The notes below the pieces were generated by a model. That model saw only the letters and a list, made by a program, of their open reading frames with translations, did not search any database and was not told the DNA's origin. From assembly GCA_003151625.1 (NCBI GenBank), contig PLYC01000013.1:93210-157209 (forward strand): a DNA stretch of 64,000 bases, in the 5' to 3' direction. Positions 139 through 26,237 of the stretch are shown piece after piece; within the stretch, counting starts at the first letter, position 1, and each line of letters starts with the position of its first letter. Made by a program: the position numbers and the translations under genes. This DNA comes from Candidatus Doudnabacteria bacterium (GTDB taxonomy: Bacteria > Patescibacteriota > Doudnabacteria > UBA920).

Positions 139-1701
139 ATGGTATCAAACAAATCTCCTTTAGTAAACAACTATTTCCTCTACGCCCGTAAATCCACTGA
201 CGTGGAAGACAAACAGGTTTTATCCATTGAAGCTCAATTGTCAGAATTACGTACATTGGCAAAGGGGCAGTCCCTAAACATTATTTGTGAGTTCGTGGAA
301 AAACAGTCGGCCAAATCTTTAGGTCGTCCTGTTTTTAACGATATGCTCGCACGGATTGGGAAAGGAGAAGCCCAAGGACTTGTCAGTTGGAAACTAGACA
401 GACTAGCCCGCAATCCAGTCGACGGCGGCCAGATAAGCTGGATGCTGCAGCGCGGAATACTCCAGCATATCCAAACCAATGAGCGGAGCTATTACTCAAC
501 TGACAATGTTCTTCTTATGAGCGTGGAGTTCGGCATGGCCAACCAGTTTATCTTGGATTTGAGCAGTAACACAAAACGTGGTCTTAGGGAAAAAGTCAGA
601 CGCGGTGACTTCCCCGCTCTGGCTCCTATCGGCTATCTTAATGACCCAAGAACTAAGACAGTTGTTATTAACAGAAAAAAAGCCGAGCTCATTAAAAGGG
701 CTTTTGAGATTTATTCTCAAAACAATTCCCGGCTGGAAGATATATCTACCTTTTTAGCCGAACATGGCCATGTTTCAAGCTATGGAAAGCCGTTGAGCCG
801 TGATCAAATTACAATGTTCCTTTCTAACCCTTTTTATTATGGTCACTTTCGATATATGGGCGAAGTCTATGAAGGACGGCATAAGCCGATTGTTACTAAA
901 CAGCTTTGGGATAAGGTGCAGGTAGTTTTAAAAGACCGCGGTCGTGTTCATAAGAGCCCGTATAACGATCCAAGGCCATTCTGCGGTCTCCTTCGCTGTG
1001 GCCAGTGTGGTTGTGCTATCACGGGCGAGAACAAGACAAAATATCAAAAAAATGGCACAACCCACCATTATGTGTATTACCGCTGTACAAGGAAGAAGGG
1101 TATTTGCCGGGAACTTGCCGTTCGTGACGAAGTTTTGGATTTGCAACTTACAAACATTCTTAAGGATTTTGTTATGCCACCGGATTGGGCCGAAACTTTG
1201 GAAAAAATGGCCGACAAACACAGTCAGCAGTCAGCACATTCCACTGCGGGGTTTGTTCAAGACTTGCGGTCAAAGGTTTTGGATATTGACCGCAAGCTCC
1301 AAAGGCTTCGAGACATCTACCTTGACCAGGATATTGAACGGGATGAATACCTAAAAGACAAGAATACCTTGATGTCCGAAAAGAAGTCTTTGGAGGGGCA
1401 GATAGCCCGTTTTGAGCAAAACCAGAATGCTTGGCTCGCACCTCTCAAAAATTGGCTGAAAGACGCAGAAACATTGGGCGAAATAACGCTTTCGCCCGAA
1501 CTGCACCCCAAAAAACTCTTTGCCCAAAAAATCTTCGGCTCGCACCTGTTCCTTCAAAATCAAAAAGTTGTTTTCACCCCACAAAAACAATGGGCGGCCG
1601 TTAAGGCCGCCCGTGCAAAAGTGGGGAAAGTCCCCTTGAGTTGTATAGTGGAGCCCACTATCGGATTTGAACCGATCACCTGCTCCTTACCATTAGGGTA
1701 A
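139..1701 (+). CDS. large serine recombinase (resolvase/invertase N-domain + recombinase domain + zinc ribbon)
   Basis: N-terminal YARKSTDVEDKQVLSIEAQ, a catalytic Ser-recombinase-like motif. Cys cluster CGQCGCAI...YRCTRKKGICR. 520 aa. The C-terminal 18 aa are encoded by the att/tRNA-derived repeat. Confidence 0.85.
   Translation: MVSNKSPLVNNYFLYARKSTDVEDKQVLSIEAQLSELRTLAKGQSLNIICEFVEKQSAKSLGRPVFNDMLARIGKGEAQGLVSWKLDRLARNPVDGGQISWMLQRGILQHIQTNERSYYSTDNVLLMSVEFGMANQFILDLSSNTKRGLREKVRRGDFPALAPIGYLNDPRTKTVVINRKKAELIKRAFEIYSQNNSRLEDISTFLAEHGHVSSYGKPLSRDQITMFLSNPFYYGHFRYMGEVYEGRHKPIVTKQLWDKVQVVLKDRGRVHKSPYNDPRPFCGLLRCGQCGCAITGENKTKYQKNGTTHHYVYYRCTRKKGICRELAVRDEVLDLQLTNILKDFVMPPDWAETLEKMADKHSQQSAHSTAGFVQDLRSKVLDIDRKLQRLRDIYLDQDIERDEYLKDKNTLMSEKKSLEGQIARFEQNQNAWLAPLKNWLKDAETLGEITLSPELHPKKLFAQKIFGSHLFLQNQKVVFTPQKQWAAVKAARAKVGKVPLSCIVEPTIGFEPITCSLPLG
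1647..1688. repeat. 42-bp direct repeat (left copy), identical to the 3' portion (anticodon loop to CCA) of the minus-strand tRNA-Thr at 26196-26237; putative att site
   Basis: Exact match agtggagcccactatcggatttgaaccgatcacctgctcctt at both positions. The reverse complement contains T-arm GGTTCAAATCC, the acceptor 3' strand and CCA. Confidence 0.85.
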
Positions 1702-1884
1702 GATGGAAATAATATCCATTTTCACCCTAGATGGTAAGGGATTACTGGAAAAAAGATTTAAAAAGTTATGCCGTTACAGTGAGCAACTCCCTGCACAAAA
1801 TTCAGGGACGAAATCCAAGAATAAAAGCTACTGCAACAAACTTATTTAAGTGCTTTTTTAATGTTCTATTTAAATCATAGCACA

Positions 1885-2835
1885 CTAAATTAAATTTTCC
1901 ATATTGGCCAAAGACTCCACGTCGGGCCGCAAGGTATGGGTTGGCAGACAGCGCAGATAGACTTCCGTCATGCGCAAATCCGTATGCCCAAGTAACTGCT
2001 TAAGCGCGGCCAAACTTCCTCCGTTCGCCAAAAAGTTTACGGAGAATGTATGCCGGTATTGGTGAACATGAAATTTCACGCCCGAACCCTCAATCACTTT
2101 GTTTACAAAATGTTTGAAGCCGTCAAAACTTAGGCGTTGGTCCCGGCTGTTGGACACAAACAGGTACGGATTTTTATAGTCTTTTTCTTTACGGGCTTTT
2201 AGGTAATCAACTAATAATTTATACGCGGCCGAATTTATGGGAATAAAGCGATCCCTCCTGGACTTGGAAGTTTCCCCCCGCACATGGAGTTCGCGTTTTT
2301 CCAAATTCAAATCAAGCACCTTAAGTTGTATTAATTCCCCTCTCCTAACGCCGGTGTTAAGCAGGGTGCCAATAAGAGCCATACTCCTTTTTTGTATGAA
2401 TGGGCTATGCCAATCAATGTTAAGACTTACGGCTAGCCAAATCCGTTCCAGTTGTTGCTTGTTCAGGAATTTTCTGTCGCTGTAAATAATCCGAGGGTAG
2501 CGCATATGCTTAAATGGATTATCGGCCAGGTATTTATTTTGTACCAGCCAATCAAAAAAACTATTTAATTTTGACCGGTATGTACCAATGGTGCTAATCC
2601 TGACGCCATTCCTTATTTCCCCTTTTCCGACAACTCTGTCGCGCTGTTCCAGGCGTTTGAAGAATTCGTTTAGAGTTTTGATAGTTAGCGTGTTTAAATC
2701 TACCCCAGGCATAAGCTTTTGGAACAATTCAAACGTCGCCACGTATCCTCTAATTGTGGCCGGTGAGCGCCGGGTTGAATACCGGCGCTCGTTCACAAAC
2801 TCCTGGTGGAGTTCGGTTAAATCTCTATTCTTCAT
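1885..2835 (-). CDS. tyrosine recombinase/integrase (XerC/D-phage integrase family)
   Basis: C-terminal HQYRHTFSVNFLANGGSLAALKQLLGHTDLRMTEVYL (R..H..R/H..Y catalytic box). 316 aa. Confidence 0.85.
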   Translation of the reverse strand: MKNRDLTELHQEFVNERRYSTRRSPATIRGYVATFELFQKLMPGVDLNTLTIKTLNEFFKRLEQRDRVVGKGEIRNGVRISTIGTYRSKLNSFFDWLVQNKYLADNPFKHMRYPRIIYSDRKFLNKQQLERIWLAVSLNIDWHSPFIQKRSMALIGTLLNTGVRRGELIQLKVLDLNLEKRELHVRGETSKSRRDRFIPINSAAYKLLVDYLKARKEKDYKNPYLFVSNSRDQRLSFDGFKHFVNKVIEGSGVKFHVHQYRHTFSVNFLANGGSLAALKQLLGHTDLRMTEVYLRCLPTHTLRPDVESLANMENLI

Positions 2836-3808
2836 TTGGATCTCCTTCGGGTAGGCTTGCTACTTTAGCCTCTATAACTTCCGGTTCGGCTTCCTCCGGT
2901 TCGTTTAGCCATCTGGCGACATGCCTTTTGACGCTCCTAAGGTTTAGTAATACCCTGGCAATGTTAATTGCGCCTATATCTGCCGGGTTATAGTTTTGCA
3001 GATGGGTTATAAGCTTTCGGGAGGCATCGCTGATTTTTTCCGCTGGTTCCATGGCGGCACTAATGGCGTCACTAACTGGCGTGGGCGAGTAGTTGGGAAT
3101 AATTTTTGACATCTGGGCATTAACCGCAAATTCGTCTAAGCCCGTGTAATCAACATTCATTATTTCCACGCCTTGGTCCGGGTATTGCACCAACGCTCTT
3201 TTAACCGCCATCGCGCTTTCTTTGGACTGGAACTCTTCGGCAATTATTTTTTCTTCCATCTCTTCCTTAAAGTCTTCCGGGATGTCTTTTAAGGCGCGGG
3301 CGTAGCTAGAGGGTATACCTTTTTCGGTTATGGCTTTTTTCATAACAGGAGAAAGATCAAGTAGACTTAATTTCTCATGCACATAGCTTTCGGACTTACC
3401 TACAGCGTGGGCAAGTTCAGTAATGCCTTTGTCATTGTGACCACCACTCCCTTTTTTTGCCTTGGCAGGAGTGATTAATGAAAGCATCTGATGTAGTGCT
3501 TTGGCTATATCCATATCGGGCATGGAATTTTGGATCAAGTTTTCTATAACCTGTCTTTGAAACCGGGCGCTGGCGTTTTCTGGATTAACTTCGCGGCAGG
3601 GTACAGTTTTTAATCCTGCTTTTTTGGCTCCTTCGTAACGGACGTGACCGGTGACAATGACAAAATTATTGTCAATTTCTATGGGATTAATAATCCCTTG
3701 AGCCGCAATACTCCTGGCCATATCAGCGACCGCCGCAGGGTCAATCTTGGAACGCGGCTGGTTTGGATCGGGTTTAATTTTCCCAATCTGTACTTCTTTG
3801 ATGTTCAT
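2825..3808 (-). CDS. ParB-like nuclease (ParB N-terminal/Srx) domain protein
   Basis: GHVRYEGAKKAGLKTVPC resembles the ParB box GxRRxxAA..G..xVP. Overlaps the integrase gene by 11 nt (operon). Confidence 0.65.
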   Translation of the reverse strand: MNIKEVQIGKIKPDPNQPRSKIDPAAVADMARSIAAQGIINPIEIDNNFVIVTGHVRYEGAKKAGLKTVPCREVNPENASARFQRQVIENLIQNSMPDMDIAKALHQMLSLITPAKAKKGSGGHNDKGITELAHAVGKSESYVHEKLSLLDLSPVMKKAITEKGIPSSYARALKDIPEDFKEEMEEKIIAEEFQSKESAMAVKRALVQYPDQGVEIMNVDYTGLDEFAVNAQMSKIIPNYSPTPVSDAISAAMEPAEKISDASRKLITHLQNYNPADIGAINIARVLLNLRSVKRHVARWLNEPEEAEPEVIEAKVASLPEGDPNEE

Positions 3809-3819
3809 ATTGATTTGAA

Positions 3820-4197
3820 TTAGTTGTTTACAATTTTACCGAATTGTTTGAAGCACAATTCATGGTACTCACACAGAACATCTTTGAAATGTTCCTTAGA
3901 AGTAGCAAATTCGAGTCTTGATTCTTCCCTAAATTTCGGATTGACTAATTCCCAATTACACTTGGCTGGATTCGCTATAAAATGTAACGCTAATACAATA
4001 GCATCGTGTATAACCTCACCGGCTACTTGGCCACATTCTAAGGAGGCGCTGATTTCTACAAGTTCATCGTCGCTAAGTTCGTATCCAAGATGTTCTTTTG
4101 CTATGTCTTTAATTGAGCTTTCAGGGATTGCTAAAACTATACGGTCAATTTTAACTTTTTTTTGATTTTGTTTTGAAGACTTTGTAATTTTGTTCAT
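3820..4197 (-). CDS. hypothetical protein
   Basis: 125-aa ORF tightly following the ParB-like gene. No recognisable motif. Confidence 0.4.
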   Translation of the reverse strand: MNKITKSSKQNQKKVKIDRIVLAIPESSIKDIAKEHLGYELSDDELVEISASLECGQVAGEVIHDAIVLALHFIANPAKCNWELVNPKFREESRLEFATSKEHFKDVLCEYHELCFKQFGKIVNN

Positions 4198-4378
4198 GGT
4201 TTTATTAATTAGTTAATTATTTATTTACTCGCCCTTAAATTTTTTCTATTTCCAGAGCGAATAATTCAGGCAATGTGCAGTTTAATCCCGCCTAAACGGT
4301 AAAGTGGATGGGTAGTGGGCAAACAGAGTTTATAAGCCCTGTTTGCCCCAGTTTCATACCACTTTTTCCAACTCGTTT

Positions 4379-4669
4379 TTACAGAGCTGTTTTAGTCCTT
4401 CTTAACAGCTGTTCGAGAATATCTCTCTCATCGCTCCTGTCATATTCCCGTTTGTCTACCAACCTGTGGAAAGCCCGGCGTAAAGCGCGCTCGTTATAGC
4501 CTTGGCCTTGAACTGCTGCCGAGAAGCAATCCAAGGTGGGAAGATTTTCGTTTCCCGCTTTGGCTTTTACTTCACGGAACTTGGTCCGTATAGTTTGCAT
4601 ATGATTATTTTTTTTCTTAACGGCTTTCATAAAAACAATCAAGGGTAAAGTTGTGCCGCTATTAAACAA
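4379..4669 (-). CDS. hypothetical protein (start uncertain; TTG or internal ATG)
   Basis: 96-aa ORF. Basic/acidic composition. No motif. Confidence 0.3.
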   Translation of the reverse strand: MFNSGTTLPLIVFMKAVKKKNNHMQTIRTKFREVKAKAGNENLPTLDCFSAAVQGQGYNERALRRAFHRLVDKREYDRSDERDILEQLLRRTKTAL

Positions 4670-4693
4670 AATACCACGCTACACGCGTGGTAT
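4661..4693. promoter_or_regulatory. perfect 11-bp-stem inverted repeat (operator-like or bidirectional terminator)
   Basis: aaataccacgc-tacac-gcgtggtattt flanked by an A-run and a T-run. Sits at the 5' end of the minus-strand operon. Confidence 0.4.
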
Positions 4694-5397
4694 TTTGAGT
4701 TTAGGGCATTAAAAAACCCCGCTAAAAACTAAATATCGCGCTATCGCGTATAACTTAGTTTCTGCGGAGGGACAAATTACCCTTGCCTAGATGTATATTA
4801 CTTCAGAACACTTTGCTGACAGTTTCATCGCCCTTTAAGCCCGTAAGCTTTAAAGTGGAGGCCGTAGCCAACCTTAGAATGACATTTTCAGCTGTTTTTC
4901 TGTTGTTGAATATAACAGTAAACCCAATATTTGATTGTTAATACTAAGTATACACCCTAATTAGCAATCTGTCAAGAGGAGTGCTAATAAATATATTAAA
5001 ACTATTTGATTCATTGATGTTTTATTTGCGGAGAAGTGGCACCCATGCCCTAGTTTTTAGTGAATTATCCACAATTTTTTGGAGCCTTAAGGACAGTTCA
5101 TCGAGCTTTAAGGTTTCTTTACGGTTTTAGAATATAACAGCTTTATAAAATTACCAGAAAACCTATAATTGGACGAAAATTGCAAAATTGCAAATACGCC
5201 TCCCACCATAACGCCCATCCCTGGCATTTAACTACTTTAAGCCAAACTACTCCCCTACCCGGTTCCTATACTTTAATCCCTTTTTCCCAGAATATATTCT
5301 AGAAACAAAAATATTTTCAGGCTAGACCTGATTAAGCGTTCCCTGACCGGCATCGTAAACAAGCCGGTCTTTTTTAATTCTTAACTTTATAAATCTA

Positions 5398-5511
5398 TGG
5401 CAAAAGATTACCACAAGTGTCCGCAATGCAATCACAATCTTTCCTACGAGGAAGAGACTGACCAAATGTGCAGTGAATGTGGTTATTCCTGGTACGACAT
5501 AAACACTTAAT
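5398..5511 (+). CDS. small zinc-ribbon protein (37 aa, two CxxC pairs)
   Basis: MAKDYHKCPQCNHNLSYEEETDQMCSECGYSWYDINT. Not in the ORF track (<60 aa). Confidence 0.4.
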
Positions 5512-5579
5512 ACCTTATTTGTGAGCGTTGCCGAGGTCGACGGTAACGTTTTTAAAATTAATCGTTAATCAAAAAATCT

Positions 5580-5804
5580 ATGCAAAAAGTTATAGAAATG
5601 AACGTCGCCCTGGCGGACCATCCATTTATGGGTATGGATCATTGCGAAATTTGCAGGGCATTATTCTTTGCTAGAAGCCGAGAAAAGTGGAATCGGCTTT
5701 TGAGCCGTTGGGATCAAATCCGGGCAAGGTCACTGCAAACCCATAGTCTAAACCCTATGATTCAGCAGGCCATTATGACCAGGACTAAGGAGGACGAGCA
5801 ATGA
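5580..5804 (+). CDS. hypothetical protein
   Basis: 74-aa ORF. Stop overlaps the next start (ATGA), so likely an operon. Confidence 0.4.
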   Translation: MQKVIEMNVALADHPFMGMDHCEICRALFFARSREKWNRLLSRWDQIRARSLQTHSLNPMIQQAIMTRTKEDEQ

Positions 5805-6109
5805 CCGAACACATTGTTAAAACCTTAACCAACTGGACCGGTTCACAAAAAACCGAGGAATTGGTTAGAGAACAAGTCCGTCAGCTCCTTGGCGAGGATG
5901 AGGCAGATTCCTTTGATCCGCGCTATAGTGCCCGGCCTTTAAGGGCGTGGCATAAACTCGGAATGCGGGTTAAGGACTCGGAATTTAACCGGCCACTCCG
6001 TTCCTTCGTGCTTATACAGAAAAAGGACAAAGACGGCGTTGTCACCAAGCGCTACTTTAAAACCATTTTCCTATACCACGTACGGCAAACGGAATTGGTT
6101 AAGAGGTAA
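5801..6109 (+). CDS. hypothetical protein
   Basis: 102-aa ORF in an operon with the RadC-like gene. Confidence 0.45.
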   Translation: MTEHIVKTLTNWTGSQKTEELVREQVRQLLGEDEADSFDPRYSARPLRAWHKLGMRVKDSEFNRPLRSFVLIQKKDKDGVVTKRYFKTIFLYHVRQTELVKR

Positions 6110-6114
6110 AGCCT

Positions 6115-6585
6115 ATGAACTATGTTATAAGCCTTAACTGTAAAGTTGACGCCAGAAATCAAGAAGAGGCCAAAGCCAAGGCGCTGATGAATATCCAGGT
6201 TAGAGAAGCCGCACCTTTAATGCTTGCGCCTCTTGATGTTTATGAGTGTCTAGAAAAATACCGAAAAAAGCAGAAGGAATATTTTATTACCTGCCTCCTT
6301 GATACGCAAAATAACCTCCTGGGCTTTAAGGTTATTGCCGTCGGCACATTAAATACTTCGCTGGTGCATCCGCGCGAAGTATTCAGGCCTGCGATAGCCG
6401 CCAACTGCGCCAGTATTATTGTGGCGCACAACCATCCATCGGGAACATTGGAGCCGAGTCCCGAAGATGTCCAAGTCACCAAAAGGCTCAAGGAGTCAGG
6501 TAAATTGATAGGAATTGAACTCACGGATCATGTCATCATAACCATGTACGGCTTTTATAGCTTCCGCGAACATCACCTGCTCTAA
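6115..6585 (+). CDS. RadC-like JAB/MPN domain protein
   Basis: JAMM motif AHNHPSGTLEPSPEDV (HxHx7Sx2D). Confidence 0.8.
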   Translation: MNYVISLNCKVDARNQEEAKAKALMNIQVREAAPLMLAPLDVYECLEKYRKKQKEYFITCLLDTQNNLLGFKVIAVGTLNTSLVHPREVFRPAIAANCASIIVAHNHPSGTLEPSPEDVQVTKRLKESGKLIGIELTDHVIITMYGFYSFREHHLL

Positions 6586-7245: not shown

Positions 7246-7977
7246 TTATTTTGGTTCCTGCTCACTAACAACCAAGGTTTTTAGCAATTCTTCAATCTGC
7301 TGGCGGTCTTTTGGGAAATGGTAAAAAGGATGGGAGGCAATAAGCTTTTGAATCCATTGTTTTTGAATAATATAGGTATTTTCCAGAGGTTTAAGTCCAA
7401 AAGTTATTTTAGCTCTGGAAAACACTATTGTCGGTTTTATATAAATTTCTACTCCCAGTTTTTCTTTAAGAAAGTTATGCAGGGACAAAGCCTGGGACTT
7501 GGATTGCCATAAAAAGTTTTTTTCCAGCAGTTGGCCATATCTGGTTAGCTGGGAGCCATTAAAGCCTATTATGCCTTTGTGGCTTTTAACTTCTATGGTA
7601 AATATTCCGGTTGGCCCGACAAGCACAAAGTCTATATTCCCCTGCTCTGGCTTAATAACGACATCGGCAAATACGGAATAAGCGTCCGGTAGTTTTTTAA
7701 GTTCATAGGCAACTACATCTTCCCCTTTTAACCCCTGAAAAAATTTGTCAGCCATCCCGTCCTCTTTGTCAATTAGTTTTTTTATAACCCAAAAGAGCGG
7801 AGCAAAAACAATAATAGAAATTATTATGTAGCCGGGCTGGGATGTATGGCCGACTAATTTGGTAAAATATTCGTATAAAGCCCAAAGGCCGACTAAAGCG
7901 TATAACAAAACCGCGACCACAGAAACCCAGGCCATACGGATGGAATACTTACTTCGGTTGCCAAAAAATTGAGCCAT
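7246..7977 (-). CDS. NERD (nuclease-related domain) membrane protein
   Basis: N-terminal TM helices then DVVIKPEQGNIDFVLVGPTGIFTIEVKSHKG, NERD-like. Confidence 0.55.
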   Translation of the reverse strand: MAQFFGNRSKYSIRMAWVSVVAVLLYALVGLWALYEYFTKLVGHTSQPGYIIISIIVFAPLFWVIKKLIDKEDGMADKFFQGLKGEDVVAYELKKLPDAYSVFADVVIKPEQGNIDFVLVGPTGIFTIEVKSHKGIIGFNGSQLTRYGQLLEKNFLWQSKSQALSLHNFLKEKLGVEIYIKPTIVFSRAKITFGLKPLENTYIIQKQWIQKLIASHPFYHFPKDRQQIEELLKTLVVSEQEPK

Positions 7978-7981
7978 ATAG

Positions 7982-8566: not shown

Positions 8567-8568
8567 AG

Positions 8569-8948: not shown

Positions 8949-9944
8949 CTAGTGTTTAATTATGTTAATTTTTGATTCTTTTGAGTTTGCAGTTATTTCT
9001 ACTTCGCCCCCAATGGGAAGTGTAATTTTTGGGTCTGTATGGCCAAAATCTACATTTGCTATTACAGGTATATTTTTAAAGTCAGGTTTGGATGTTATTA
9101 TTTGTTTTATTTTATTATCTGACATCTGGCTGGCTTTTTGAAACCTCCCAATAACTAAACCTCTTACTTTTCCAAAATTCGGTAGCTGAATTAACGATTG
9201 CAAATTGCGGTCAAATTCCACGGCTGAAGATTCCTTTGGTAGATCATCGTCTTCCAAGAAAAGAATACTGTCTGTTAAGTCCGGGAAGTATTCCGTACCC
9301 TGTAGCAAATTAAAGGTGCAAAGATTGCCGCCAAGAATGGTGCCGCTGGCCTTACCCTGATTTATAACCAGTTGTCCTTGGTTAGGAATAAGGGCGCGTT
9401 CATTTTGGTTTTTAAACCACAGGTCATCACTCCAATCCTTGCTGGGTTCAATTTTAAAAGGCTCGTTAGAAAATAAACATTTTTTGCAATAATCCAGCGT
9501 GTAGTCAAAATATTTTTCTTGGCCAAAAGTGGAATAATGCGGCCCGTAATAACTCACAAGCCCGGTCTTGGCAAAAATCGAGTTGTTTAAAATTGTAATG
9601 TCTGAGTACCCGCAGAGAATTTTTGGGTTGTCTTTAATCAACTGCCAATCAACATGCCTTAATAATTGGTTAGAATTATAGCCGCCAATTACTGTAAAAA
9701 TAGCCTTAACGTTCTTGTCCGCAAACGCCTGGTGTAAGTCTTCAATACGCGATTCTATTGTGGTAGAATCAAATTCGTCTTTTTCTTCAACGTTTCTGCC
9801 AAAACTAATCTTTAGCCCCAAGTCATTAAATCGGTTGTTGGCAATTTGCCTTAAGCCGCCTGAAATAATCCCCAGAGATCTTGACGGAGCTATAACCCTA
9901 ACCTCGTCCCCTGTTTTTAATTTTGAAGAGTAGATTTTATTCAT
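8949..9944 (-). CDS. S66 family LD-carboxypeptidase (LdcA/MccF-like)
   Basis: GDEVRVIAPSRSL, CGYSDITIL, GGNLCTF and FGHT motifs. Confidence 0.8.
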   Translation of the reverse strand: MNKIYSSKLKTGDEVRVIAPSRSLGIISGGLRQIANNRFNDLGLKISFGRNVEEKDEFDSTTIESRIEDLHQAFADKNVKAIFTVIGGYNSNQLLRHVDWQLIKDNPKILCGYSDITILNNSIFAKTGLVSYYGPHYSTFGQEKYFDYTLDYCKKCLFSNEPFKIEPSKDWSDDLWFKNQNERALIPNQGQLVINQGKASGTILGGNLCTFNLLQGTEYFPDLTDSILFLEDDDLPKESSAVEFDRNLQSLIQLPNFGKVRGLVIGRFQKASQMSDNKIKQIITSKPDFKNIPVIANVDFGHTDPKITLPIGGEVEITANSKESKINIIKH

Positions 9945-9962: not shown

Positions 9963-10157
9963 TTAAAATTTTTTAGCTTTTAGTCTATTATTGGCAAAAT
10001 GCAAAGTAAAAGCCGAACCTGACGGCCGGGAAATTCCAAGCCGCGTGTCCATATAAAAACAGCGCGGACAGTCTAAGAACGTGCCAATCTTGCCCCGGCT
10101 TGGCTTAAAGAGCTTGTCGGTCGCTTGATCGAATAAATAGTTTCTTTTGCTTGGCAT
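9963..10157 (-). pseudogene. truncated paralog of the N-terminus of the Cas4-like nuclease at 15434-16177
   Basis: MPSKRNYLFDQATDKLFKPSRGKIGTFLDCPRCFYMDTRLGISRPSGSAFTL vs MAYKRSNLYEPEADKPFKLSRSKIDMFLDCPRCFYMDRRLGISRPSGPAFTL. ~85% DNA identity over ~150 bp. Confidence 0.6.
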
Positions 10158-10158
10158 A

Positions 10159-10806: not shown

Positions 10807-10813
10807 AAGTCAG

Positions 10814-12561: not shown

Positions 12562-12873
12562 TTAATTTGGCAGCCTACCTTCTTTTTCTCTGATTAGATA
12601 TGTTTCTGACTTTAAACAACGGTTTATAATACCTTCCATATGCCAGTAGGTGTAACCGTTATAGTCAAAATATACCTGCTTTGTTTGATAAAAATGGGAT
12701 TCGTAACCGAAGGTGTCGATGTGATGCGCGAGTGCCAGGAACAAATCGTTATCAACCCGCTCCTGGACAATATACTCGTGAGGCCAGGTTTTTGCGTACG
12801 TGACTGCAAAAATCCACTTTGAATTGTCTATAAATTGTTTTAACTTTTCAGAAAGTTTACCATTCTTGGTCAT
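12562..12873 (-). CDS. hypothetical protein
   Basis: 103 aa. 4-nt overlap with the upstream gene. Confidence 0.45.
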   Translation of the reverse strand: MTKNGKLSEKLKQFIDNSKWIFAVTYAKTWPHEYIVQERVDNDLFLALAHHIDTFGYESHFYQTKQVYFDYNGYTYWHMEGIINRCLKSETYLIREKEGRLPN

Positions 12874-16177: not shown

Positions 16178-16185
16178 TTTAAAGT

Positions 16186-18771: not shown

Positions 18772-21700
18772 TTAGAAATAAGCTGATCAATTTCTTTCAT
18801 AATGCGGATGGTTTCGCGGAGGGAGGCGACGATTTTCATATAGTGCTTTAAGTCGTCCAAAGACAGGCTACGCTCGGCCTTTTTGCGATCCTTTAGCCAC
18901 TTCTCACAAACCTGATAGCCGCCAATCATAAACTCCCAAACTTCTTTTTCCACACCTTCAAAATACTGGCCGGGATTTACGTAAACTCGTCGGTCTTTAG
19001 CTGAATATTTAACCTCGGTAACTTTCCAGTCTTCCAAACTTTCCGGCTTCTCACCCCCAAGACTAATCCCCCATTTGTCCGAATCGTCAAAAATTGTCTT
19101 GGACTGATCAAACGGATTTTCTCCGAGCAAATGCAAATTTACTAACTCGTTACCTTTGGCAACTAATTTTTTAAACAGTTCTTTATTGGAAGTTAGCGGT
19201 AAGCGCGGAAAATCTATTTTCAACTGTTCGGCATACCTGATCCGGTAAGTCGGGCAATGAAAAATAGCATAAGTATAGTAAAACACATCTTCCGGTCCAA
19301 AAGTTTTTTCCAAATCACCTCGCCCATCGCTAATAAAGCTTATCCCAAGTTTTTGAGAACATTCCTTAGTAAATTTTTCGGAAAAATTTACTTTTTTGTT
19401 TAGTTTCCCAAAAAGATTAGATTGTGTTGAGTCGGAGTATAGGTATAGCGGAAAGATATAAGAGCCTATTGCTGAATCTAGATTATGCATATCACACAAT
19501 AATGATGTAACAAAAAAATGGTTATTTTTCTGATTCTGGATATTTCGATGTAGGGTCAGCCCTAAATTATTTTTATTAAGGAAATGTTTCATTATATCTT
19601 GTCTAGGCCAGTCTAACAATTCCTTGTTGTATATTAAATAACGGTTGTCAAAAGCTCTGAATTGAATTTTAATAATCTCATTATTATAATCTATCTTCTT
19701 TTTTCTCGCTTCTGATAAAAGCCATCCTCGCGTATCGCCCTTTAAATACTTACCTGATCTTTTCCCAGAAGAAAAAAATCTGACCCTAATAGTATCATCA
19801 CTATTATTTAAATTAAAAAAATAATCTAACTTTTTTAACAAATCTTTTCTTTCAAATCCATAAACAAGCTGATCCCTTGAAGATTGTATGCCTGTATTGC
19901 AAGAATCAAATACATCCTTTACAGAATTTATTTGGTTATAGTCATCTTCGTGATGGACTACTTTAAAAATGTAATGTGGAGCGTTTGGTTCAATTTCAGT
20001 CCACTCTGTATTATTAACTTCATGAGTTAAAAGGAACTCAAATTTATTTTCTTTTAGGCCAAAAAGTTCAGAATAAAAAATATTCTTTGCTATTTTTCTT
20101 TCGTTTTTGATAAAAAATGAAATTACAACACCTGTTTGAATTGGAAAAACATTTTCATCCTTTGTACCATCAGGCGCCTTTTCATTTTTGACCGAACTGC
20201 CATGTAAATTAAGAATATAAATTTCATCGAAATAATTCAATAAATTATAGCGCATTCCTCTAAAAGTTGGGTTATCCAGAAAATTGTGATTTGTTATAAA
20301 AGATAAAATTCCATGTCCTATATCTGCAATCTTCCATTGAGCAAAACGAATAAATTTTACATAATCATCTTGAAGCCAATGCTTTTTTTCTCCAAAATGT
20401 TTACCATCAATATATTTATAGTCCTCAATAAGTTTATTAATCCATTCTCCTTTATTAGCCGATACCCCGGAATATGGCGGGTTGCCGATTATAGCTAAAA
20501 TTGGCGCGTCTTTTTTGACTTTACGCGCGGCTTCGCTTTCTTCAGCGATTGAGGGAAAGGCTATAGAACCAAAATCAGTTGTAGCTTTGGCCTGTTTTTG
20601 GTAAGCGTTGGGATCATCAAGCGTATTTGCCAAATAAACTTTTAAGCGGTCTTTGTCGCCGTCGCCCTTTGCCATCTCAAAATCAAAACCCAAATCTTCT
20701 AAAAGCAAAGTAAGTTTTAAATGGGCAATGGCGTAAGGTGCGACTAAAAGTTCAAAGCCATAAAAATGTTTTAAAATGTGGTCAACAACTACCCTATTAA
20801 ATTCCTTAGTTACCATTTCTGGGCCCAAGGTGTTATTTTGCTTTTGAACTGCGGAGTGAATTTGCTGAATGGCGGACATTAAGAATGTGCCGGTGCCAGT
20901 GGCCGGGTCAAGTAAATGGACGCTTTCATCAGCCAAACCTTTTTCTTTGCCGAATTTTTCTTTTAAGATGAAATCTACACTACGGACAATGTAATCTACT
21001 ACCGGCTTTGGCGTGTAGTAGACACCTCGCGCTTCGCGTTCCTTAGGGTCGTATTCGTTCAAAAACGGCTCGTAGAAATGAATAACCGGGTCCTCGCCGA
21101 CTTTATGCTCTCGTAACTTTAACTCAATTTTAGCCATCTCGGCCGCGTTCAGCTGGTCTATTAGGGCGGTGGTGGCCTGGTGAATATTAGGAATAACTTG
21201 GGAGACTTTTTTAATCAAAGAATATAAGTCGGCCAAAATAGGAACGCTTGCTGGTAAATAATCCATTGCCGTGGTTAAGGTTAGAACATCGGACTTGCCG
21301 CGCTTGGTATGCTCCAAAGAGGCCAGGAATAAAGAATACGCCACAGTTTCGGCCACCATATTGGCAAACTGGTGCGGCTCTATATTTTGGATTAAAGTTT
21401 TCTCAAAAGTTTCTTTTAGCTTAACCAAGTCCGAAGTTTCGTCGGCATCCTTAAAGGCTTCTTCCACTTGATTAGACAAAAGCTTAGTCTTTTTTGCCAA
21501 GGCCAACGCCAGCTGTTTAGTGGTACGCGCTTCATAAGCTTTGCCGGAAAAGAATTGATGCAAGATGTCAATCAGGTTTTGCTCCTCGCCGGTGGTAAAA
21601 TTTGCAACATCAAAAATTATTTCTTTTATTTTTACCGGCTTGCCTTCGTCACCCCATTGCCAAAGCTGCCACTGTTTAAAATTGGTGAATAGAATATTTT

Positions 21701-22004
21701 CTAAAGCGTCCTTATATTTTTCAAACTGCTTATTGAATTTAGGACTGTCTAAGGAATCTTCCGGTAGTTTTACTTCCACCCAGCCAACCAGCCGGTCTTT
21801 TCGCCGTACAGTAACGTCAGGAAAGCCCACGCCACCGGCAACGGCTTTAGCGCTCTCTTCGGCCGTGGCAAATATGTCTTTGGACTTTTCCAATTCGGCG
21901 AGCTCCTGCAGGAAGTTAGTTAAAGCCGGGTAAAAGGATCGTTCGGTGCCGTGGTCTTTAATCCTTAAAAAACTTTGTTGGAATTTTTCTATTGGTATGT
22001 TCAT
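18756..22004 (-). CDS. N6-adenine DNA methyltransferase, Type IIG/IIL(MmeI)-like or PglX-like; possible N-terminal PD-ExK endonuclease segment
   Basis: Motif I LLDPATGTGTFL and motif IV IIGNPPYSG. N-terminal FPDVTV..GWVEVK. 1082 aa. 16-nt overlap with the downstream gene. Confidence 0.8.
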   Translation of the reverse strand: MNIPIEKFQQSFLRIKDHGTERSFYPALTNFLQELAELEKSKDIFATAEESAKAVAGGVGFPDVTVRRKDRLVGWVEVKLPEDSLDSPKFNKQFEKYKDALENILFTNFKQWQLWQWGDEGKPVKIKEIIFDVANFTTGEEQNLIDILHQFFSGKAYEARTTKQLALALAKKTKLLSNQVEEAFKDADETSDLVKLKETFEKTLIQNIEPHQFANMVAETVAYSLFLASLEHTKRGKSDVLTLTTAMDYLPASVPILADLYSLIKKVSQVIPNIHQATTALIDQLNAAEMAKIELKLREHKVGEDPVIHFYEPFLNEYDPKEREARGVYYTPKPVVDYIVRSVDFILKEKFGKEKGLADESVHLLDPATGTGTFLMSAIQQIHSAVQKQNNTLGPEMVTKEFNRVVVDHILKHFYGFELLVAPYAIAHLKLTLLLEDLGFDFEMAKGDGDKDRLKVYLANTLDDPNAYQKQAKATTDFGSIAFPSIAEESEAARKVKKDAPILAIIGNPPYSGVSANKGEWINKLIEDYKYIDGKHFGEKKHWLQDDYVKFIRFAQWKIADIGHGILSFITNHNFLDNPTFRGMRYNLLNYFDEIYILNLHGSSVKNEKAPDGTKDENVFPIQTGVVISFFIKNERKIAKNIFYSELFGLKENKFEFLLTHEVNNTEWTEIEPNAPHYIFKVVHHEDDYNQINSVKDVFDSCNTGIQSSRDQLVYGFERKDLLKKLDYFFNLNNSDDTIRVRFFSSGKRSGKYLKGDTRGWLLSEARKKKIDYNNEIIKIQFRAFDNRYLIYNKELLDWPRQDIMKHFLNKNNLGLTLHRNIQNQKNNHFFVTSLLCDMHNLDSAIGSYIFPLYLYSDSTQSNLFGKLNKKVNFSEKFTKECSQKLGISFISDGRGDLEKTFGPEDVFYYTYAIFHCPTYRIRYAEQLKIDFPRLPLTSNKELFKKLVAKGNELVNLHLLGENPFDQSKTIFDDSDKWGISLGGEKPESLEDWKVTEVKYSAKDRRVYVNPGQYFEGVEKEVWEFMIGGYQVCEKWLKDRKKAERSLSLDDLKHYMKIVASLRETIRIMKEIDQLISNWPLL

Positions 22005-25000
22005 TTAGGCAGTTATTTTAAATTGTATTTTTGCTAAATTTTTATACTCAAAAGTCATTTCCAGTTTATTCCTTAAATCCATAACTTTTTGGTCTTTCTG
22101 TAAAAACTGTTCCTGCTGCATTTTCATATACTTATTTTGGGCTTTAAATAAATCTTTTTGTTTTTTATCTTTTTCTTCCAATATTTGCTGGCGCTCATGA
22201 AAGCCGGTAGTCTTAGATGAAATTTTTAACTTTTTACCTATTTCCTTAAGCTCCTGCTCGCGCAAGTCCATCTCCTGTTTGTATTTTAAAATGGATTCAT
22301 CCACAAAACGGTCAAGATTCTGCATTTCTTGATCCACATAACCCTCATTTTCAGCTTTAATTTCCTGTTTAAAGTCGTTCCCGTTTTTTTGTATTAAGTC
22401 CGACAATTCGTCCCGAAGCCTTTCGTGCATATTTTTTTCTTCCGTCACTTCCAACTCAAACAGTTTTTCAGCTCTTTTTGGCTCAATTTTTTGCCACTGC
22501 CCGTCTTTAAATACCAACGAGCTTACAATAATTTTTTCAAAAGTTTCTTCGGTGTTGTTTATGGTTTTCCGGCTGCAGTTTAAGACATCAACCGAAATCT
22601 GGCCGTCCAGGCCAATAAATTCTTCCAAGACTTTCCTGTGGTCCTGTGGGTGCTTAAAAGTTAAAGACCATGAACCGGACAATTTTTTGTCCTGATCAAT
22701 GTTGTGCCTGACAAAATTGGTTTCCAGGTTAATTGGCAAAATACCCTCTTCCCTTTCGGCTTCAGAGAGTCTTCCTAAACAAAATTTACCGCCGGAATAT
22801 TCAAAAATTTTGTCACTTTTATAGTTAATGGTTTTACCTAAAGTAAAATTTAAGTAAGCCTTAAGCTGGGCGTCAAACTTGTTCAAAGAATCGTCAAAAG
22901 TCTGCTGGCGAATTTTTAGTTTTTGCCTGATTTCTTCGTCAAAATGTTGAATAACCTTTTTTTGCGTGTCTTCAATCTTTTCCTCAATAAAGTCGCCTAA
23001 GTCCAGCTGTAACTGTTTAAAGCCCTGGGCTATTTGCTGTTCAGTCCGGCACTTACGGTAAATTTCCAAAATTTTTCTTTCAAAATCCAAGCCCGCTCCC
23101 AAACCTCCTAAAGCAACTTCCCGGACCTCGTAACCGTCATCGGTTAATTTTTCAGTTCCTAAAACTTGATCGCTAAAATCAAACAGGTTACCGAATAATT
23201 TGATTTTTTCCTGCAACAATTCGTAAACTCTTTGGTCAGCGTAGTTTTTTTTATTTAAAAAGTTTACTACCAAGACATCCAACTTTTGGCCGTACCTGTG
23301 GCATCTGCCGATGCGCTGTTCAATGCGCTGCGGATTCCACGGTAAATCATAGTTAATAACAATGTTGGCAAACTGTAAGTTTATACCCTCGGCTCCGGCT
23401 TCTGTGGTAATTAAAATCGCCTTTGGCAGTTCTTTAAACTTCCAAACCAAGGCTTTTCTGATGTTGATGCTTTTAGAACCTCTGGCGGCTTCATCGGGAA
23501 AAGTCTGTTCCCATTCCGCGTAAATGTCTTTTGATCGTTTGGAGGCGTTGCTGCCATTAAATAAAACTAATTCGTACCCGCTGGCGCTTAAAAGTTTTTC
23601 CAAATGGTCCTGGGTACGCCTGGACTCAGTAAAGATTACCGCTTTTTGCGGCCAATGTTGCTTTTCGGCGTGAATGAAAACTTTTTTTAATACTTTGACC
23701 AATGCCTGACTTTTTTGGTTGACATCAATACTGCAAGCCAAATAGTAATATTCCAAAACATCCTTAAGTTCACGAAAGATTTCTTCTTTACTAAATTTAT
23801 GGTCTATTTCCCGCTCATTTTTCTTTTCCTGCGTTCCGTCAACTTTTTCGTCCTCTTGTAAGTCGTCCGATTCTTGGGTTTCTTCTTCCACTTCACCGGC
23901 TTTTATTTCCGCGTCTTCAAATCCCGGCAAAACTTCCTGAATCAAATCTTTTGTAGTTTCGGCAGGTTGAAGTTGGATGTCCGGCAGTGCCTTGCTGTAC
24001 TTGGTTTGAATTTCTAATTTTTGTTGCTTTATGTAGGCCTGGACATCTTCAAAAGTTACATCCTGCTCCTGCTGCAGTCTTTTAGCTAGAAAATGGACAA
24101 TCTTTTCCAACGTTCCGGCAATCGCGAACGAGGAACTGGCCAATATTTTGCGGTAAACCAATTCCATCATGTTTCTTTGGGTCGCGAGAGTGGAAGCTAA
24201 AATCGGCCTGCGTAAATATTCGCTTACCAGGTCATAAAGCTCTATTTCGTTGTCGTTCGGCGCGAAGTCTTCGGTGTGGCTAAAACGATTGGTAAAACTT
24301 ACAAATCCTCTAACCTGTTTTCTTAAGGTTCGGGTTAAAACGCCGCCGCTGACTTCCCCATTTTCAATAGTGCCCATTAGCCGTTCCTTGAGCTGGCCTA
24401 ATGAATCATATTTTTTGTGTCTTTTTACCGGATTAACAAAAAGGTTTCTAAAAGAATATTCTGTTCCTAAATAATTTTCTTCCAAAAAACTGGTCAAACC
24501 AAAAAGCTCCATTAAATTATTTTGTAATGGCGTCGCGGTCATTAAGATTTTAGGCCTGCTTAAAATAGCATCCTTAACTTTTTTTGCGACTTTATTTGTT
24601 TTTCTCCAAACGTTCCTTAAGCGATGGGCTTCATCAATTACAACCAAATCCCAGGCAACGTCTTTTACAAATTTTTCATACCGGTAAGCAAAATTATGGG
24701 ACGCTATATATATTCCATTTTCGGAAAGCGGATTTAACTTGTCTGTTTTGTCCTGTAAAATTTTTAACTGGGCCGAATCAACAATACTGCTTTCAAGATT
24801 AAAGCGGAGCGTGAGTTCATCTTGCCATTGAGTTCTTAAGGATGCCGGAACCAAAATTAGAATATGCTGCCTGCCTTCCACCCATAACTGATTGATTATT
24901 AGCCCGGCTTCTATGGTTTTTCCCAAGCCCACTTCATCAGCCAAAATCGCGCCTCTGGAAAGAGGACTTTTAAACGCAAAAACCGCCGCATCGACCTGGT

Positions 25001-25115
25001 GTGGGTTTAAGTCAATATTGGCGGCACGAATTACATTATTCAATTTTTCCGGGTCGCTGATTGATTTTTTTTCAGTCAGCTTGTGGGCTAAATAAAGCCT
25101 TTGAATTTGGGACAT
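22005..25115 (-). CDS. SNF2-family (SF2) helicase/translocase
   Basis: ILADEVGLGKTIEAG (motif I), VVIDEAHRLRN (motif II), MTATPLQNN (motif III), QRIGRCHRYGQ (motif VI). 1036 aa with a C-terminal coiled-coil extension. Confidence 0.85.
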   Translation of the reverse strand: MSQIQRLYLAHKLTEKKSISDPEKLNNVIRAANIDLNPHQVDAAVFAFKSPLSRGAILADEVGLGKTIEAGLIINQLWVEGRQHILILVPASLRTQWQDELTLRFNLESSIVDSAQLKILQDKTDKLNPLSENGIYIASHNFAYRYEKFVKDVAWDLVVIDEAHRLRNVWRKTNKVAKKVKDAILSRPKILMTATPLQNNLMELFGLTSFLEENYLGTEYSFRNLFVNPVKRHKKYDSLGQLKERLMGTIENGEVSGGVLTRTLRKQVRGFVSFTNRFSHTEDFAPNDNEIELYDLVSEYLRRPILASTLATQRNMMELVYRKILASSSFAIAGTLEKIVHFLAKRLQQEQDVTFEDVQAYIKQQKLEIQTKYSKALPDIQLQPAETTKDLIQEVLPGFEDAEIKAGEVEEETQESDDLQEDEKVDGTQEKKNEREIDHKFSKEEIFRELKDVLEYYYLACSIDVNQKSQALVKVLKKVFIHAEKQHWPQKAVIFTESRRTQDHLEKLLSASGYELVLFNGSNASKRSKDIYAEWEQTFPDEAARGSKSINIRKALVWKFKELPKAILITTEAGAEGINLQFANIVINYDLPWNPQRIEQRIGRCHRYGQKLDVLVVNFLNKKNYADQRVYELLQEKIKLFGNLFDFSDQVLGTEKLTDDGYEVREVALGGLGAGLDFERKILEIYRKCRTEQQIAQGFKQLQLDLGDFIEEKIEDTQKKVIQHFDEEIRQKLKIRQQTFDDSLNKFDAQLKAYLNFTLGKTINYKSDKIFEYSGGKFCLGRLSEAEREEGILPINLETNFVRHNIDQDKKLSGSWSLTFKHPQDHRKVLEEFIGLDGQISVDVLNCSRKTINNTEETFEKIIVSSLVFKDGQWQKIEPKRAEKLFELEVTEEKNMHERLRDELSDLIQKNGNDFKQEIKAENEGYVDQEMQNLDRFVDESILKYKQEMDLREQELKEIGKKLKISSKTTGFHERQQILEEKDKKQKDLFKAQNKYMKMQQEQFLQKDQKVMDLRNKLEMTFEYKNLAKIQFKITA

Positions 25116-25252: not shown

Positions 25253-26158
25253 TTATAGATTATTCAGCGGGTGTTTCGTGATTTGTGCCCGCAGATGTTC
25301 AGCCGTCGCGCTTAAATAAATTGTCGTGGTCTTGATGTCCGAATGGCCCATCATTTTGCTTAGGCTGTAAATGTCGCACCCACCTTCCAACATTAAAACC
25401 GCAAACGAATGTCTAAGTTTGTGAATTCCAAAGTTTATTTTGCTGGCTTTTTTTATAATCTCCACTAAGTTGCGCAGGCCCATTTGGGTAAAACCCATAT
25501 TCCGGTTTAACGAAGCAAAGAATTCCGGGCAGGTTTTATGTATTCTCTTTCTTTCAACCACGTATCTTTTTAAAGTTTCCGCCAGGGCAAAACAGATTGG
25601 AATCATTCTGTCTTTGTTGCCTTTCCCCTGCCGGACAAAGATTGTAAGGTTTTCCAAGTCTACATCCGCGAATTTTAAGTTTAGCAATTCGCCTTTGCGG
25701 AGCCCGGCCATTATAAATGTGGCAAAAATTGCGTGGTTGCGGTAACGCAGGTATTTATATTGGTACGGGTAATTGTAGACCACTTCCAGCAGTTTCATTG
25801 TCTGCTGTTTTGTCAGCTTGGGTGGCAGCCGCTTTTCTAACTTTGGAATTTCTATTTTCTCCGCGTAATTTTCAGGCATGTATTTCTCTTTGACGCACCA
25901 GCGGAAAAACACAACCAGACTTTTAATAAAGTTAATGTAGGTATTTGTACTCCAATTTCGTTCTGTGCGGCCATAGAAAAACAGCTTCCGGATATTCTCT
26001 TCGTTTATCTGCTCAAACTCGGTGACATTGCAATATTTGCAGTAATAGTTAATAACAAACCTATACCGTCTGATTGTGGCTTTGGCGTATCCTCGTATAA
26101 ACGAGGAATAGTCATAGAACTTTAGGGCCGCTAATTGTATGTCCATATATACCTCCAA
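25253..26158 (-). CDS. tyrosine recombinase/integrase adjacent to tRNA
   Basis: HKLRHSFAVLMLEGGCDIYSLSKMMGHSDIKTTTIYL catalytic box. 301 aa. ~40 bp from the tRNA 3' end. Confidence 0.85.
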   Translation of the reverse strand: MEVYMDIQLAALKFYDYSSFIRGYAKATIRRYRFVINYYCKYCNVTEFEQINEENIRKLFFYGRTERNWSTNTYINFIKSLVVFFRWCVKEKYMPENYAEKIEIPKLEKRLPPKLTKQQTMKLLEVVYNYPYQYKYLRYRNHAIFATFIMAGLRKGELLNLKFADVDLENLTIFVRQGKGNKDRMIPICFALAETLKRYVVERKRIHKTCPEFFASLNRNMGFTQMGLRNLVEIIKKASKINFGIHKLRHSFAVLMLEGGCDIYSLSKMMGHSDIKTTTIYLSATAEHLRAQITKHPLNNL

Positions 26159-26195
26159 AATAAAAACACTGCATAAACTTGTTGCAGTGCTTTTA

Positions 26196-26237
26196 AGTGG
26201 AGCCCACTATCGGATTTGAACCGATCACCTGCTCCTT
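26196..26237. repeat. 42-bp direct repeat (right copy) = 3' exon of tRNA-Thr; putative att site
   Basis: Identical to 1647-1688. Confidence 0.85.

Follow-up and report, generated by a model that had tools for sequence, protein, structure and literature searches.

Evidence for a defence island that splits a tRNA-Thr(GGU) gene and carries its own intron-bearing copy in Candidatus Doudnabacteria

What becomes of a host tRNA gene when a mobile element enters it at the anticodon loop, and where does such an element end? The question is raised by a 64,000-nt stretch of Candidatus Doudnabacteria DNA (assembly GCA_003151625.1, contig PLYC01000013.1, positions 93,210 to 157,209; hereafter the window, numbered from its first letter), in which a first-pass annotation had proposed an island of ~24.5 kb (1647–26237) bounded by perfect 42-bp direct repeats from the 3' half of tRNA-Thr. 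The data presented below make it very probable that an integrative, non-phage defence island of ~24.9 kb occupies 1694–26600, with a tRNA-replacement design and one 7-bp core on each side.

The repeat itself is as annotated. The 42-mer AGTGGAGCCCACTATCGGATTTGAACCGATCACCTGCTCCTT is present in exactly two copies on the plus strand, 1647–1688 and 26196–26237, with 0 mismatches and a chance expectation of 0.00 matches (100 shuffles). Its reverse complement corresponds to positions 37–76 of tRNA-Thr(GGU) plus 2 nt. The complementary part of the gene, the 5' half (GCCCACTT...CCATGGT), also occurs twice, at 26425–26460 and 26603–26638. Read on the minus strand, the former (GCCCACTTAGCTCATTTGGTAGAGCAGCTCCATGGT, 26460→26425) lies 187 nt from the right copy of the 42-mer, and the latter, identical to it, runs 26638→26603. 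ATGGT precedes the left 42-mer and AA follows the upstream 5' half; thus, both junctions hold the whole anticodon loop ATGGTAA. No tRNA was called within the window by ARAGORN or by Rfam at gathering score. The 263 nt from 26460 to 26198 nevertheless fold into a cloverleaf, interrupted between positions 36 and 37 by a structured insert of 187 nt (minimum free energy fold, z = -4.26), and this intron-containing gene is the sole functional tRNA candidate in the 64 kb. Its predicted spliced form has the sequence of the rejoined host tRNA and a cloverleaf fold.

To place the boundaries, related loci (designated by L numbers) were compared with the window; a metagenome scan with the 3' exon as query returned seven contigs. 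Empty sites of the kind predicted by the first-pass annotation were found in L082, L085, L086 and L087, in which the TPR gene is followed by an intact, intronless tRNA-Thr(GGT). In L082, rpsB–tsf–TPR and the intronless tRNA-Thr(GGT) are followed directly by a serine recombinase homologue, which is the layout of the window with 1694–26600 deleted. The alignment of L082 to the window covers 1693→1247, i.e. homology begins at 1693, and the host-flank alignments of L086 and L087 stop at 26601. From these limits, the insertion comprises 1694–26600 and is flanked by the 7-bp anticodon loop. In the aligned junctions, attB reads 5' half, ATGGTAA, 3' half; attL of the window reads 5' half, ATGGTAA, then aaaggcagtcta...; and attR reads ...cttacccta, ATGGTAA, then 3' half. 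The three sites have only ATGGTAA in common, and strand exchange would fall at some position within these 7 bp. The arrangement rpsB–tsf–TPR–tRNA-Thr is conserved host synteny (L082, L085–L087, L173, L177 and L182), and tsf and rpsB follow TPR on the right flank of the window as well. A genome-collection scan with EF-Ts returned a single close relative (82%), on a 2.3-kb contig of a Candidatus Doudnabacteria MAG that ends ahead of the tRNA, which places the host in the Patescibacteria; exact-match queries in the protein collection with TPR, the serine recombinase, EF-Ts and Int read from the TTG gave no entry.

Empty sites and junctions thus agree on an element integrated into tRNA-Thr at the anticodon loop, as first annotated, and the left 42-mer is indeed a displaced host 3' fragment that runs on into the host flank, as it does in L082. 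The right 42-mer is truly a 3' exon, but one that belongs to the island tRNA and not to a host gene repaired by an island-borne 3' segment. As island bounds the 42-bp repeats fail, and with them the ~24.5-kb extent: the right 42-mer lies 364 bp inside the insertion, which also contains the intron, the second 5' half and a 140-nt spacer. The host tRNA-Thr gene in the window is split and unrepaired. Its 5' half at 26603–26638 continues into the spacer with no 3' half behind it, and neither junction amounts to a tRNA.

A perfect 42-bp direct repeat with an integrase ~50 bp from its right copy is the usual Islander-type signature (PMC4383910). It would be accounted for by a classical tRNA island, 1689–26237, had the host tRNA already been intron-bearing and had an attP with a copy of the 42-bp 3' exon regenerated the gene while displacing the host 3' exon to 1647–1688. 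This explanation is hardly tenable. The tRNA is intronless in four of four empty sites, host homology stops at 26601 rather than 26237, and a second, orphan 5' half, followed by AA, is left over at 26601–26638. ATGGT before the left copy is the intronless loop sequence, and int is accompanied by spacer, 5' exon and intron when it enters hosts with differing tRNAs (see below). Moreover, the island 3' exon of L182 matches the displaced host half in L081, from the same metagenome, at only 37 of 40 positions, so a perfect long repeat is not needed. The classical tRNA-targeting signature therefore does not apply here: no 3' identity block regenerates the tRNA, and the host gene stays split.

That the second tRNA is part of the island is illustrated by relatives of Int, the Xer-like tyrosine integrase encoded beside it (Table 1). 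More than 2000 homologues were found, with more than 120 clusters at 65–75% identity. In ten of ten Int-homologue contexts sampled (65–96% identity, contigs of 583–981 kb included) a tRNA-Thr(GGU) gene lies just upstream of int, and in all ten this gene is preceded either by an attP-like junction or by an orphan 5' half of the host gene that has the loop at its end. The gene order in the window is 140-nt spacer, island tRNA, terminator, int. The intron is present in six of the ten contexts, and the island tRNA often differs from that of the host. In L173 (Int 74% aa, rpsB 84%) the host half is of the GCCCACT type and the island tRNA of the GCCGTTG type. In L177–L181 (Int 91% aa; rpsB 71%, tsf 77%, TPR 45%) the host 5' half reads GCCGTTGTAGCTCAGCTGG...ATCTCC, and the island exon ...CAGTTGG...AACTCC. 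In L182 (Int 96% aa) the acceptor and T stems of the island tRNA show compensatory changes relative to the host half. Since the island exons differ from the adjacent host 5' half in L173, L177 and L182, the tRNA belongs to the island and travels with the integrase, and the compared loci indicate that the spacer–tRNA(–intron)–int module moves as a unit. A homologous intron is found in the island tRNA of L091, a 981-kb Patescibacteria contig; the island tRNA is intronless in L088 (a 583-kb contig), L093, L174 and L176, in each of which ARAGORN calls it as tRNA-Thr(GGT). Restriction-modification or defence genes recur as downstream cargo. L084 carries the same module at 93% nt identity over 1.5 kb, the tRNA and intron differing by homopolymer indels only and the spacer by ~9 substitutions. 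At 3816–5309 of this locus the int frame is broken in several places, with single-base homopolymer indels in tRNA and intron; the assembly looks error-prone, and the apparent frameshifts are thus not to be taken as biological.

Close association of Int with tRNA-Thr is also what a fixed, non-mobile defence hotspot beside a resident tRNA-Thr and xer-like gene would offer, with cargo swapped by homologous recombination and the tRNA half-copies left as old duplication scars. The unusual conservation of the Int family, always beside tRNA-Thr, fits such a hotspot, as do the mosaic cargo between relatives, the intact intronless tRNA followed by an island-type terminator in L085, and the lack of any observed circular form. 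We consider it very unlikely, given clean empty sites on both sides and an Int phylogenetically incongruent with host genes (Int 91% vs rpsB 71% in L177; Int 74% vs rpsB 84% in L173). In addition, the island right end is not tied to one place. In L081 and L083 it joins, with a 99% identical Rec2 (the second recombinase, see below), the host tRNA 3' half, and downstream follows DNA with homology to the flanks of the empty sites L086 and L087. At 98–99% identity, this right end is present in three different downstream contexts. Finally, attP-like junctions exist in L093 and L176, as tandem site-specific integration predicts. These junctions (L093 ~5560–5900, L176 ~2577–2890) read Rec2 homologue, ..ggtt(A)ATGGTAA, spacer, tRNA, int, and sit within long chromosomal contigs, consistent with tandem island copies. 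A TrwB/TraG-like coupling protein is additionally encoded in L093, and a Replic_Relax gene is present in L176. In L085 (1–110) an intact, intronless host-type tRNA-Thr comes directly after TPR; next to it lie a terminator hairpin of the island type, taaaagcactgcga..gcagtgtttttatt, and the contig end. This layout resembles a classical attL and may have arisen when attL recombined with an intronless island tRNA.

The perfect identity of the two 42-mers is a secondary feature on the integrated-island reading. A 9-nt relic of the 5' end of a GCCGTTG-type tRNA, GCCGTTGTA, lies directly upstream of the island tRNA at 26462–26470 (minus strand), and again in L182 at ~5606–5614. A GCCGTTG-type tRNA is still carried by L173, L177 and L091; the relic shows that the island lineage of the window once carried a tRNA of this type and later gained host-type exons. 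Evidently, the exons were swapped to host type with the intron kept, hence the perfect 42-bp identity; gene conversion and intron mobility are possible routes.

Based on its predicted fold and on covariation, the 187-nt insert is taken to be a putative group-I-type intron. Its borders read GGU/GAGAAC...GAAGUG/AAGGAGC, and U at position -1 and G at the 3' end are also seen in L091, L173, L177 and L182. The five distinct introns share an invariant core, CCCGAAUWACGGUUAA, AGACCGUGGCGA...UCGCCCGAACGACUGACAAGGG and AUACAGUCUA, with a possible resemblance to the classical P/Q/R/S elements. The core is unchanged across Int lineages 69–96% identical. The consensus of the five distinct homologues comprises 38 pairs (96.3% paired), 13 of which show compensatory changes on both sides, all in peripheral hairpins; these values were reached by none of 500 shuffles, and slid controls were far lower. 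Helices are predicted for ACGGUU/GACCGU, GGCGA/UCGCC, GACUG/CAGUC (enclosing a variable hairpin) and CCCUC/GAGGU; the core helices and a proposed CCC/GGG P3 are invariant. Their predicted order is that expected for P4-P5-P6-P7-(P3')-P8-P7'-P9, group I introns having the core order P3-P4-P5-P6-P7-P3'-P8-P7'-P9 with a pseudoknot at P3 and a P7 that binds guanosine. Among the loci scanned with the intron model built here, the intron was found only in island-borne tRNAs adjoining the Int family. Other classes of insert were rejected: a group II intron in view of the length of 187 nt, with no reverse transcriptase and no Rfam match; an archaeal bulge-helix-bulge intron, as the organism is bacterial and rpsB–tsf is present; and a miniature inverted-repeat transposable element or insertion sequence in view of the conserved structured core, the precise U/G boundaries and the single copy per locus.

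Several points weigh against an integrated island with a spliced replacement tRNA. Neither a circular attP junction nor a same-strain empty site was seen, and the empty sites come from related species with ~78–83% nt identity in rpsB and tsf. A second tRNA-Thr(GGU) gene is possible elsewhere in the genome, since 64 kb are in view. The island exons of the window are 100% identical to the host halves, which alone would also fit a local duplication; a local duplication of the 5' half is ruled out by the differing 5' copies in L173, L177 and L182, not by the window itself. As to the intron, the covariation derives from only five distinct sequences in an alignment fitted to the model, and the P3 and P7 helices are invariant and thus carry no covariation. 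Moreover, RF00028 (Intron_gpI) gave no match at gathering score or at E ≤ 10 in the window region and four homologous loci, where only chance miRNA-type matches were returned.

Accepting the architecture, one may ask whether the insert is non-functional as an intron, the island tRNA being dead and ACC/ACU being read by another tRNA-Thr. The missing Rfam group I match, a gene not called by ARAGORN and a proposed P1 of only 3 bp (GGU/GCC), read by eye, speak for this view. Still, it appears quite unlikely. The core is invariant across the Int lineages compared above and accompanied by the 13 compensatory pairs, and the intron shows zero substitutions against L084 where the spacer does not. The exons retain their cloverleaf via compensatory changes in L182, L173 and L091, and the U at -1 and the G at the 3' end are kept in five of five sequences. 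Furthermore, inserts at position 36/37 of tRNA-Thr(GGU) in Patescibacteria have been classed as divergent group I introns in PMC13011429 (Nakagawa et al., mSystems 2026), in which three of 95 complete Patescibacteria genomes carried them, with a reported size range of 184–894 bp; these introns were missed by RF00028 and mostly by ARAGORN. The intron described here shares with them phylum, isoacceptor, site, U at -1, G at the 3' end and a size near the lower bound, a likeness by description. The word integrase is mentioned in neither PMC13011429 nor the tFind paper (Williams 2020, bioRxiv 10.1101/2020.01.27.920355), and the single mention of "island", in the tFind paper, only cites island-finding software. 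In contrast, every intron copy found here is in an island-borne tRNA adjoining the Int family.

Two tyrosine recombinases are encoded at opposite ends of the island, in line with the first-pass annotation, which had noted an integrase close to the tRNA and a second recombinase with a ParB-like gene at the distal end. The int gene lies 51 nt from the 3' end of the island tRNA. Judged from the sequence and from homologue length, its true start is the ATG at 26146 after GGAGG and not the TTG at 26158. Rec2 is 31% identical to Int; homologues at 48–51% lie directly upstream of the attP-like junctions in L093 and L176. Size, domain layout and the RHR-H-Y catalytic motifs, conserved across the family alignment, are shared with XerC, XerD and XerA, and the best NCBIfam matches are XerA, XerD and XerC; in contrast to these recombinases, the scores stay far below the equivalog cut-offs (175 vs 220; 170 vs 330), the genes are located on a mobile element, and the target is a tRNA anticodon loop and not dif. 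Rec2 itself is XerA/C/D-like in NCBIfam, below cut-offs. No close relative emerged from viral contigs when these were scanned with the 3' exon, with the intron core and with an alignment of Int, the Int relatives there being at most 38% identical.

Candidate recombinase-binding sites may be read from both island ends. At the right end, the motif CCTTACCAT(C)TAGGGT forms an inverted pair, 1685–1699 and 1724–1739, with one copy spanning the 7-bp core, and the similar motif CCTTGTTATCAGGG is found in the spacer at 26575–26588. A second motif, AAACAGGTC, is present at both spacer ends in L088, L093, L173, L174 and L176 (in L091 the first copy is the variant gaaATAGGTC). Such motifs lie just after the loop and again near the spacer 3' end and resemble the variable-loop/T-stem junction of a tRNA; they could be recombinase half-sites or a decayed former 3' identity block. 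The terminator-like hairpin between the island tRNA and int is conserved in L084, L177, L173 and L091; having an 11-nt loop, it was not reported by the hairpin scan, which had a loop limit of 8. A promoter scan of 26100–26760 found nothing.

Combining these data, a mechanism can be proposed. Int, possibly with Rec2, would have recombined the island attP with an intronless tRNA-Thr(GGU) gene of a Doudnabacteria-like Patescibacteria host, attP sharing only the 7-nt loop ATGGTAA with the target. For want of a 3' identity block, integration would leave the host gene as two dead halves (26603–26638 and 1649–1688), for which the island's own complete tRNA-Thr(GGU), located between attP and int at 26198–26460, would compensate. 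The 187-nt intron would have to be removed, presumably by self-splicing, yielding a 76-nt tRNA identical to that of the host. Bacteria of the Candidate Phyla Radiation (CPR), with their reduced genomes, usually have one copy of each tRNA gene; thus, the host may depend on the island tRNA. If the element is still mobile, its precise excision would restore this same tRNA from the two host halves: the attP junction of the excised circle would read CTTACCCTA-ATGGTAA-AAAGGCAGTCTACC, and the restored attB GCTCC-ATGGTAA-GGAGC between the TPR flank and the downstream flank.

Why an intron should be retained in the replacement tRNA may be explained, tentatively and with less than even confidence, by self-immunity, as at position 36/37 it splits the target of Int, the anticodon stem-loop. 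The island tRNA lies only ~175 bp from attP in direct orientation, and a split copy would escape Int. This would prevent both an attP × tRNA deletion of spacer and 5' exon and secondary integration into the island, while splicing would still yield a normal tRNA. Weakly supporting this idea, the anticodon stems of island and host tRNA are identical or differ at one of five positions in the intron-bearing window, L182, L091, L177 and L173, and differ at two or more positions in intronless L088 and L174, the only two intronless lineages with a visible host half; further, L085 is the classical-looking product expected from an attP × tRNA deletion.

The closest known mechanism is the tRNA-dependent lysogeny of actinobacteriophages (Guerrero-Bustamante & Hatfull, mBio 2024, PMC10865867; prophage Lj965 is cited there). 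Such lysogeny also entails an element tRNA without which integrants are not viable, a dependence that may hold here too. Common to both are an attB overlapping a host tRNA, element-encoded tyrosine recombinases (with the catalytic role predicted here from sequence), a short core, no tRNA rebuilt at the junction, and an element tRNA of the same isotype. Unlike these phages, the present island is a non-phage defence element in Patescibacteria. Its integrases are small and Xer-like and form a conserved pair, with no arm-binding domain detected by family searches; attP and int directly enclose the replacement tRNA, which in six of ten contexts has the group-I-type intron in the crossover loop. With Islander/TIGER islands (PMC4383910) the element shares integration at a tRNA anticodon loop, an integrase by the tRNA and a displaced fragment at the far end. 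Unlike those, it lacks a target-regenerating identity block, so that the displaced-fragment repeat misses the near end.

No account of such CPR islands turned up in literature searches. The splitting of a tRNA with provision of a spare, reported in 2024 for actinophages, extends to a large, conserved family of non-phage defence islands of CPR bacteria, and the divergent tRNA-Thr(GGU) group I introns of Patescibacteria gain a genomic context and a testable reason for being there. If the immunity proposal is true, these introns would be hallmarks of this island family, and a self-splicing ribozyme would serve a mobile element as an anti-recombination device. For annotation, it should be noted that tRNA finders report no tRNA-Thr(GGU) here, which completeness estimates based on tRNA counts would score as missing, and that island mappers relying on displaced fragments would stop 364 bp short of the true boundary and overlook the orphan 5' half. 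Being compact (~1.5 kb at its Int end), the Int (and Rec2)–attP–tRNA module might be developed into an integration tool where genetics are lacking.

Pfam and PADLOC confirm a cargo related to defence or nucleases (Table 1), as first noted. No phage structural, lysis or repressor genes were found by Pfam or PHROGs, and there was no phage or plasmid DNA match; judged by gene content, the element is neither phage nor plasmid. HEC-01A and HEC-01B are adjacent, as the HEC-01 system requires. DISARM, which needs DrmA, DrmB and a methylase with DrmD or DrmC, was rejected: only a DrmD-like helicase lies beside the Type IIG/ISP-like methylase, and no DrmB/DUF1998 was present among the island proteins scanned.

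Table 1. Position, strand and supporting evidence of the features in and around the island (window coordinates)
Feature	Position	Strand	Evidence
Large serine recombinase gene, host-side flank outside island	139-1701	+	Pfam Resolvase+Recombinase+Zn_ribbon_recom
Displaced 3' half (positions 37-76) of split host tRNA-Thr(GGU), in left 42-bp repeat copy 1647-1688	1649-1688	-	runs on into host flank, like L082
Imperfect inverted repeat CCTTACCAT(C)TAGGGT at island right end, spanning core	1685-1739	.	read from sequence; conserved in L081, L083
attR core TTACCAT (loop ATGGTAA on minus strand; AUGGUAA)	1687-1693	.	junction alignment, L082 homology start
Rec2, second Xer-like tyrosine recombinase, 316 aa, island end distal to Int	1885-2835	-	Pfam Phage_integrase 6e-32
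ParB-like protein (ParB_N + HTH)	2825-3808	-	
RadC-like JAB domain protein	6115-6585	+	
NERD nuclease-related protein	7246-7977	-	
LD-carboxypeptidase, not obviously defence	8949-9944	-	
HEC-01 two-gene candidate defence system	10159-11911	-	PADLOC, Pfam
HEC-01B DUF4276	10159-10806	-	PADLOC 4.9e-82
HEC-01A AAA_21 ATPase	10814-11911	-	PADLOC 3.4e-142
PDC-S11-like candidate defence protein	12870-13979	-	PADLOC 3.6e-18
Protein with FokI-type cleavage domain	14061-15419	-	Pfam 4.8e-7
PD-(D/E)XK / Cas4-like nuclease	15434-16177	-	
PHP-domain + AAA ATPase, TrlF family, Ppl-like	16186-18771	-	NCBIfam TrlF_fam_ATP 450.8 bits (cut-off 350), PADLOC Ppl 2.6e-35
Type IIG / Type ISP-like methyltransferase-specificity protein	18756-22004	-	Pfam Type_ISP_C 8.6e-88, PADLOC REase_MTase_IIG 1.1e-229
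DrmD-like SNF2 helicase	22005-25115	-	Pfam SNF2-rel_dom/Helicase_C, PADLOC DrmD 1.8e-157
Int, Xer-like tyrosine integrase, 297 aa	25253-26146	-	Pfam
Terminator-like hairpin GCACTGC-11 nt-GCAGTG + T-run, between island tRNA and int	26157-26190	-	read from sequence
Island tRNA-Thr(GGU), complete, intron at 36/37	26198-26460	-	fold, exon comparison
3' exon (positions 37-76) of island tRNA-Thr(GGU), in right 42-bp repeat copy	26198-26237	-	
Predicted 187-nt group-I-like intron at tRNA position 36/37, U at -1, G at 3' end	26238-26424	-	fold, covariation
5' exon (positions 1-36) of island tRNA-Thr(GGU)	26425-26460	-	
140-nt island spacer, P' side of attP	26461-26600	-	homologous spacers in L084, L177, L182
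attL core TTACCAT (anticodon loop), second true flanking repeat	26601-26607	.	L086/L087 homology end
Split host tRNA-Thr(GGU), orphan 5' half (positions 1-36), immediately downstream of TPR gene	26603-26638	-	upstream flank matches empty sites L086, L087
TPR protein gene, host flank	26686-27549	-	

The last 18 codons of the 520-aa serine recombinase open reading frame (ORF) on the left flank (overlap 1647–1701) are antisense to the displaced tRNA 3' half, and its homologue at 2061–2822 of L082 (80.7% nt, 64% aa) abuts the intact tRNA likewise. The gene is absent downstream of the tRNA in L086, L087, L081 and L083; on its 3' side this tRNA may thus harbour a second element, distinct from the island.

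Within the cargo, a 169-nt direct repeat of 80% identity connects 9993–10161 with 16013–16181, and L081 matches both copies. The Cas4-like nuclease gene has its 5' end within the second copy; the first is an intergenic fragment and probably a scar left by recombination during cargo shuffling. Closer to the ParB-like gene, ~1.1 kb of the island (4670–5800) is free of ORFs of at least 80 aa and contains the 23-mer TTTTCTGTTGTTGAATATAACAG twice (4896–4918 and 5118–5140, 83%) as well as a palindrome at 5281–5308. This segment could be a replication, partition or regulatory region.

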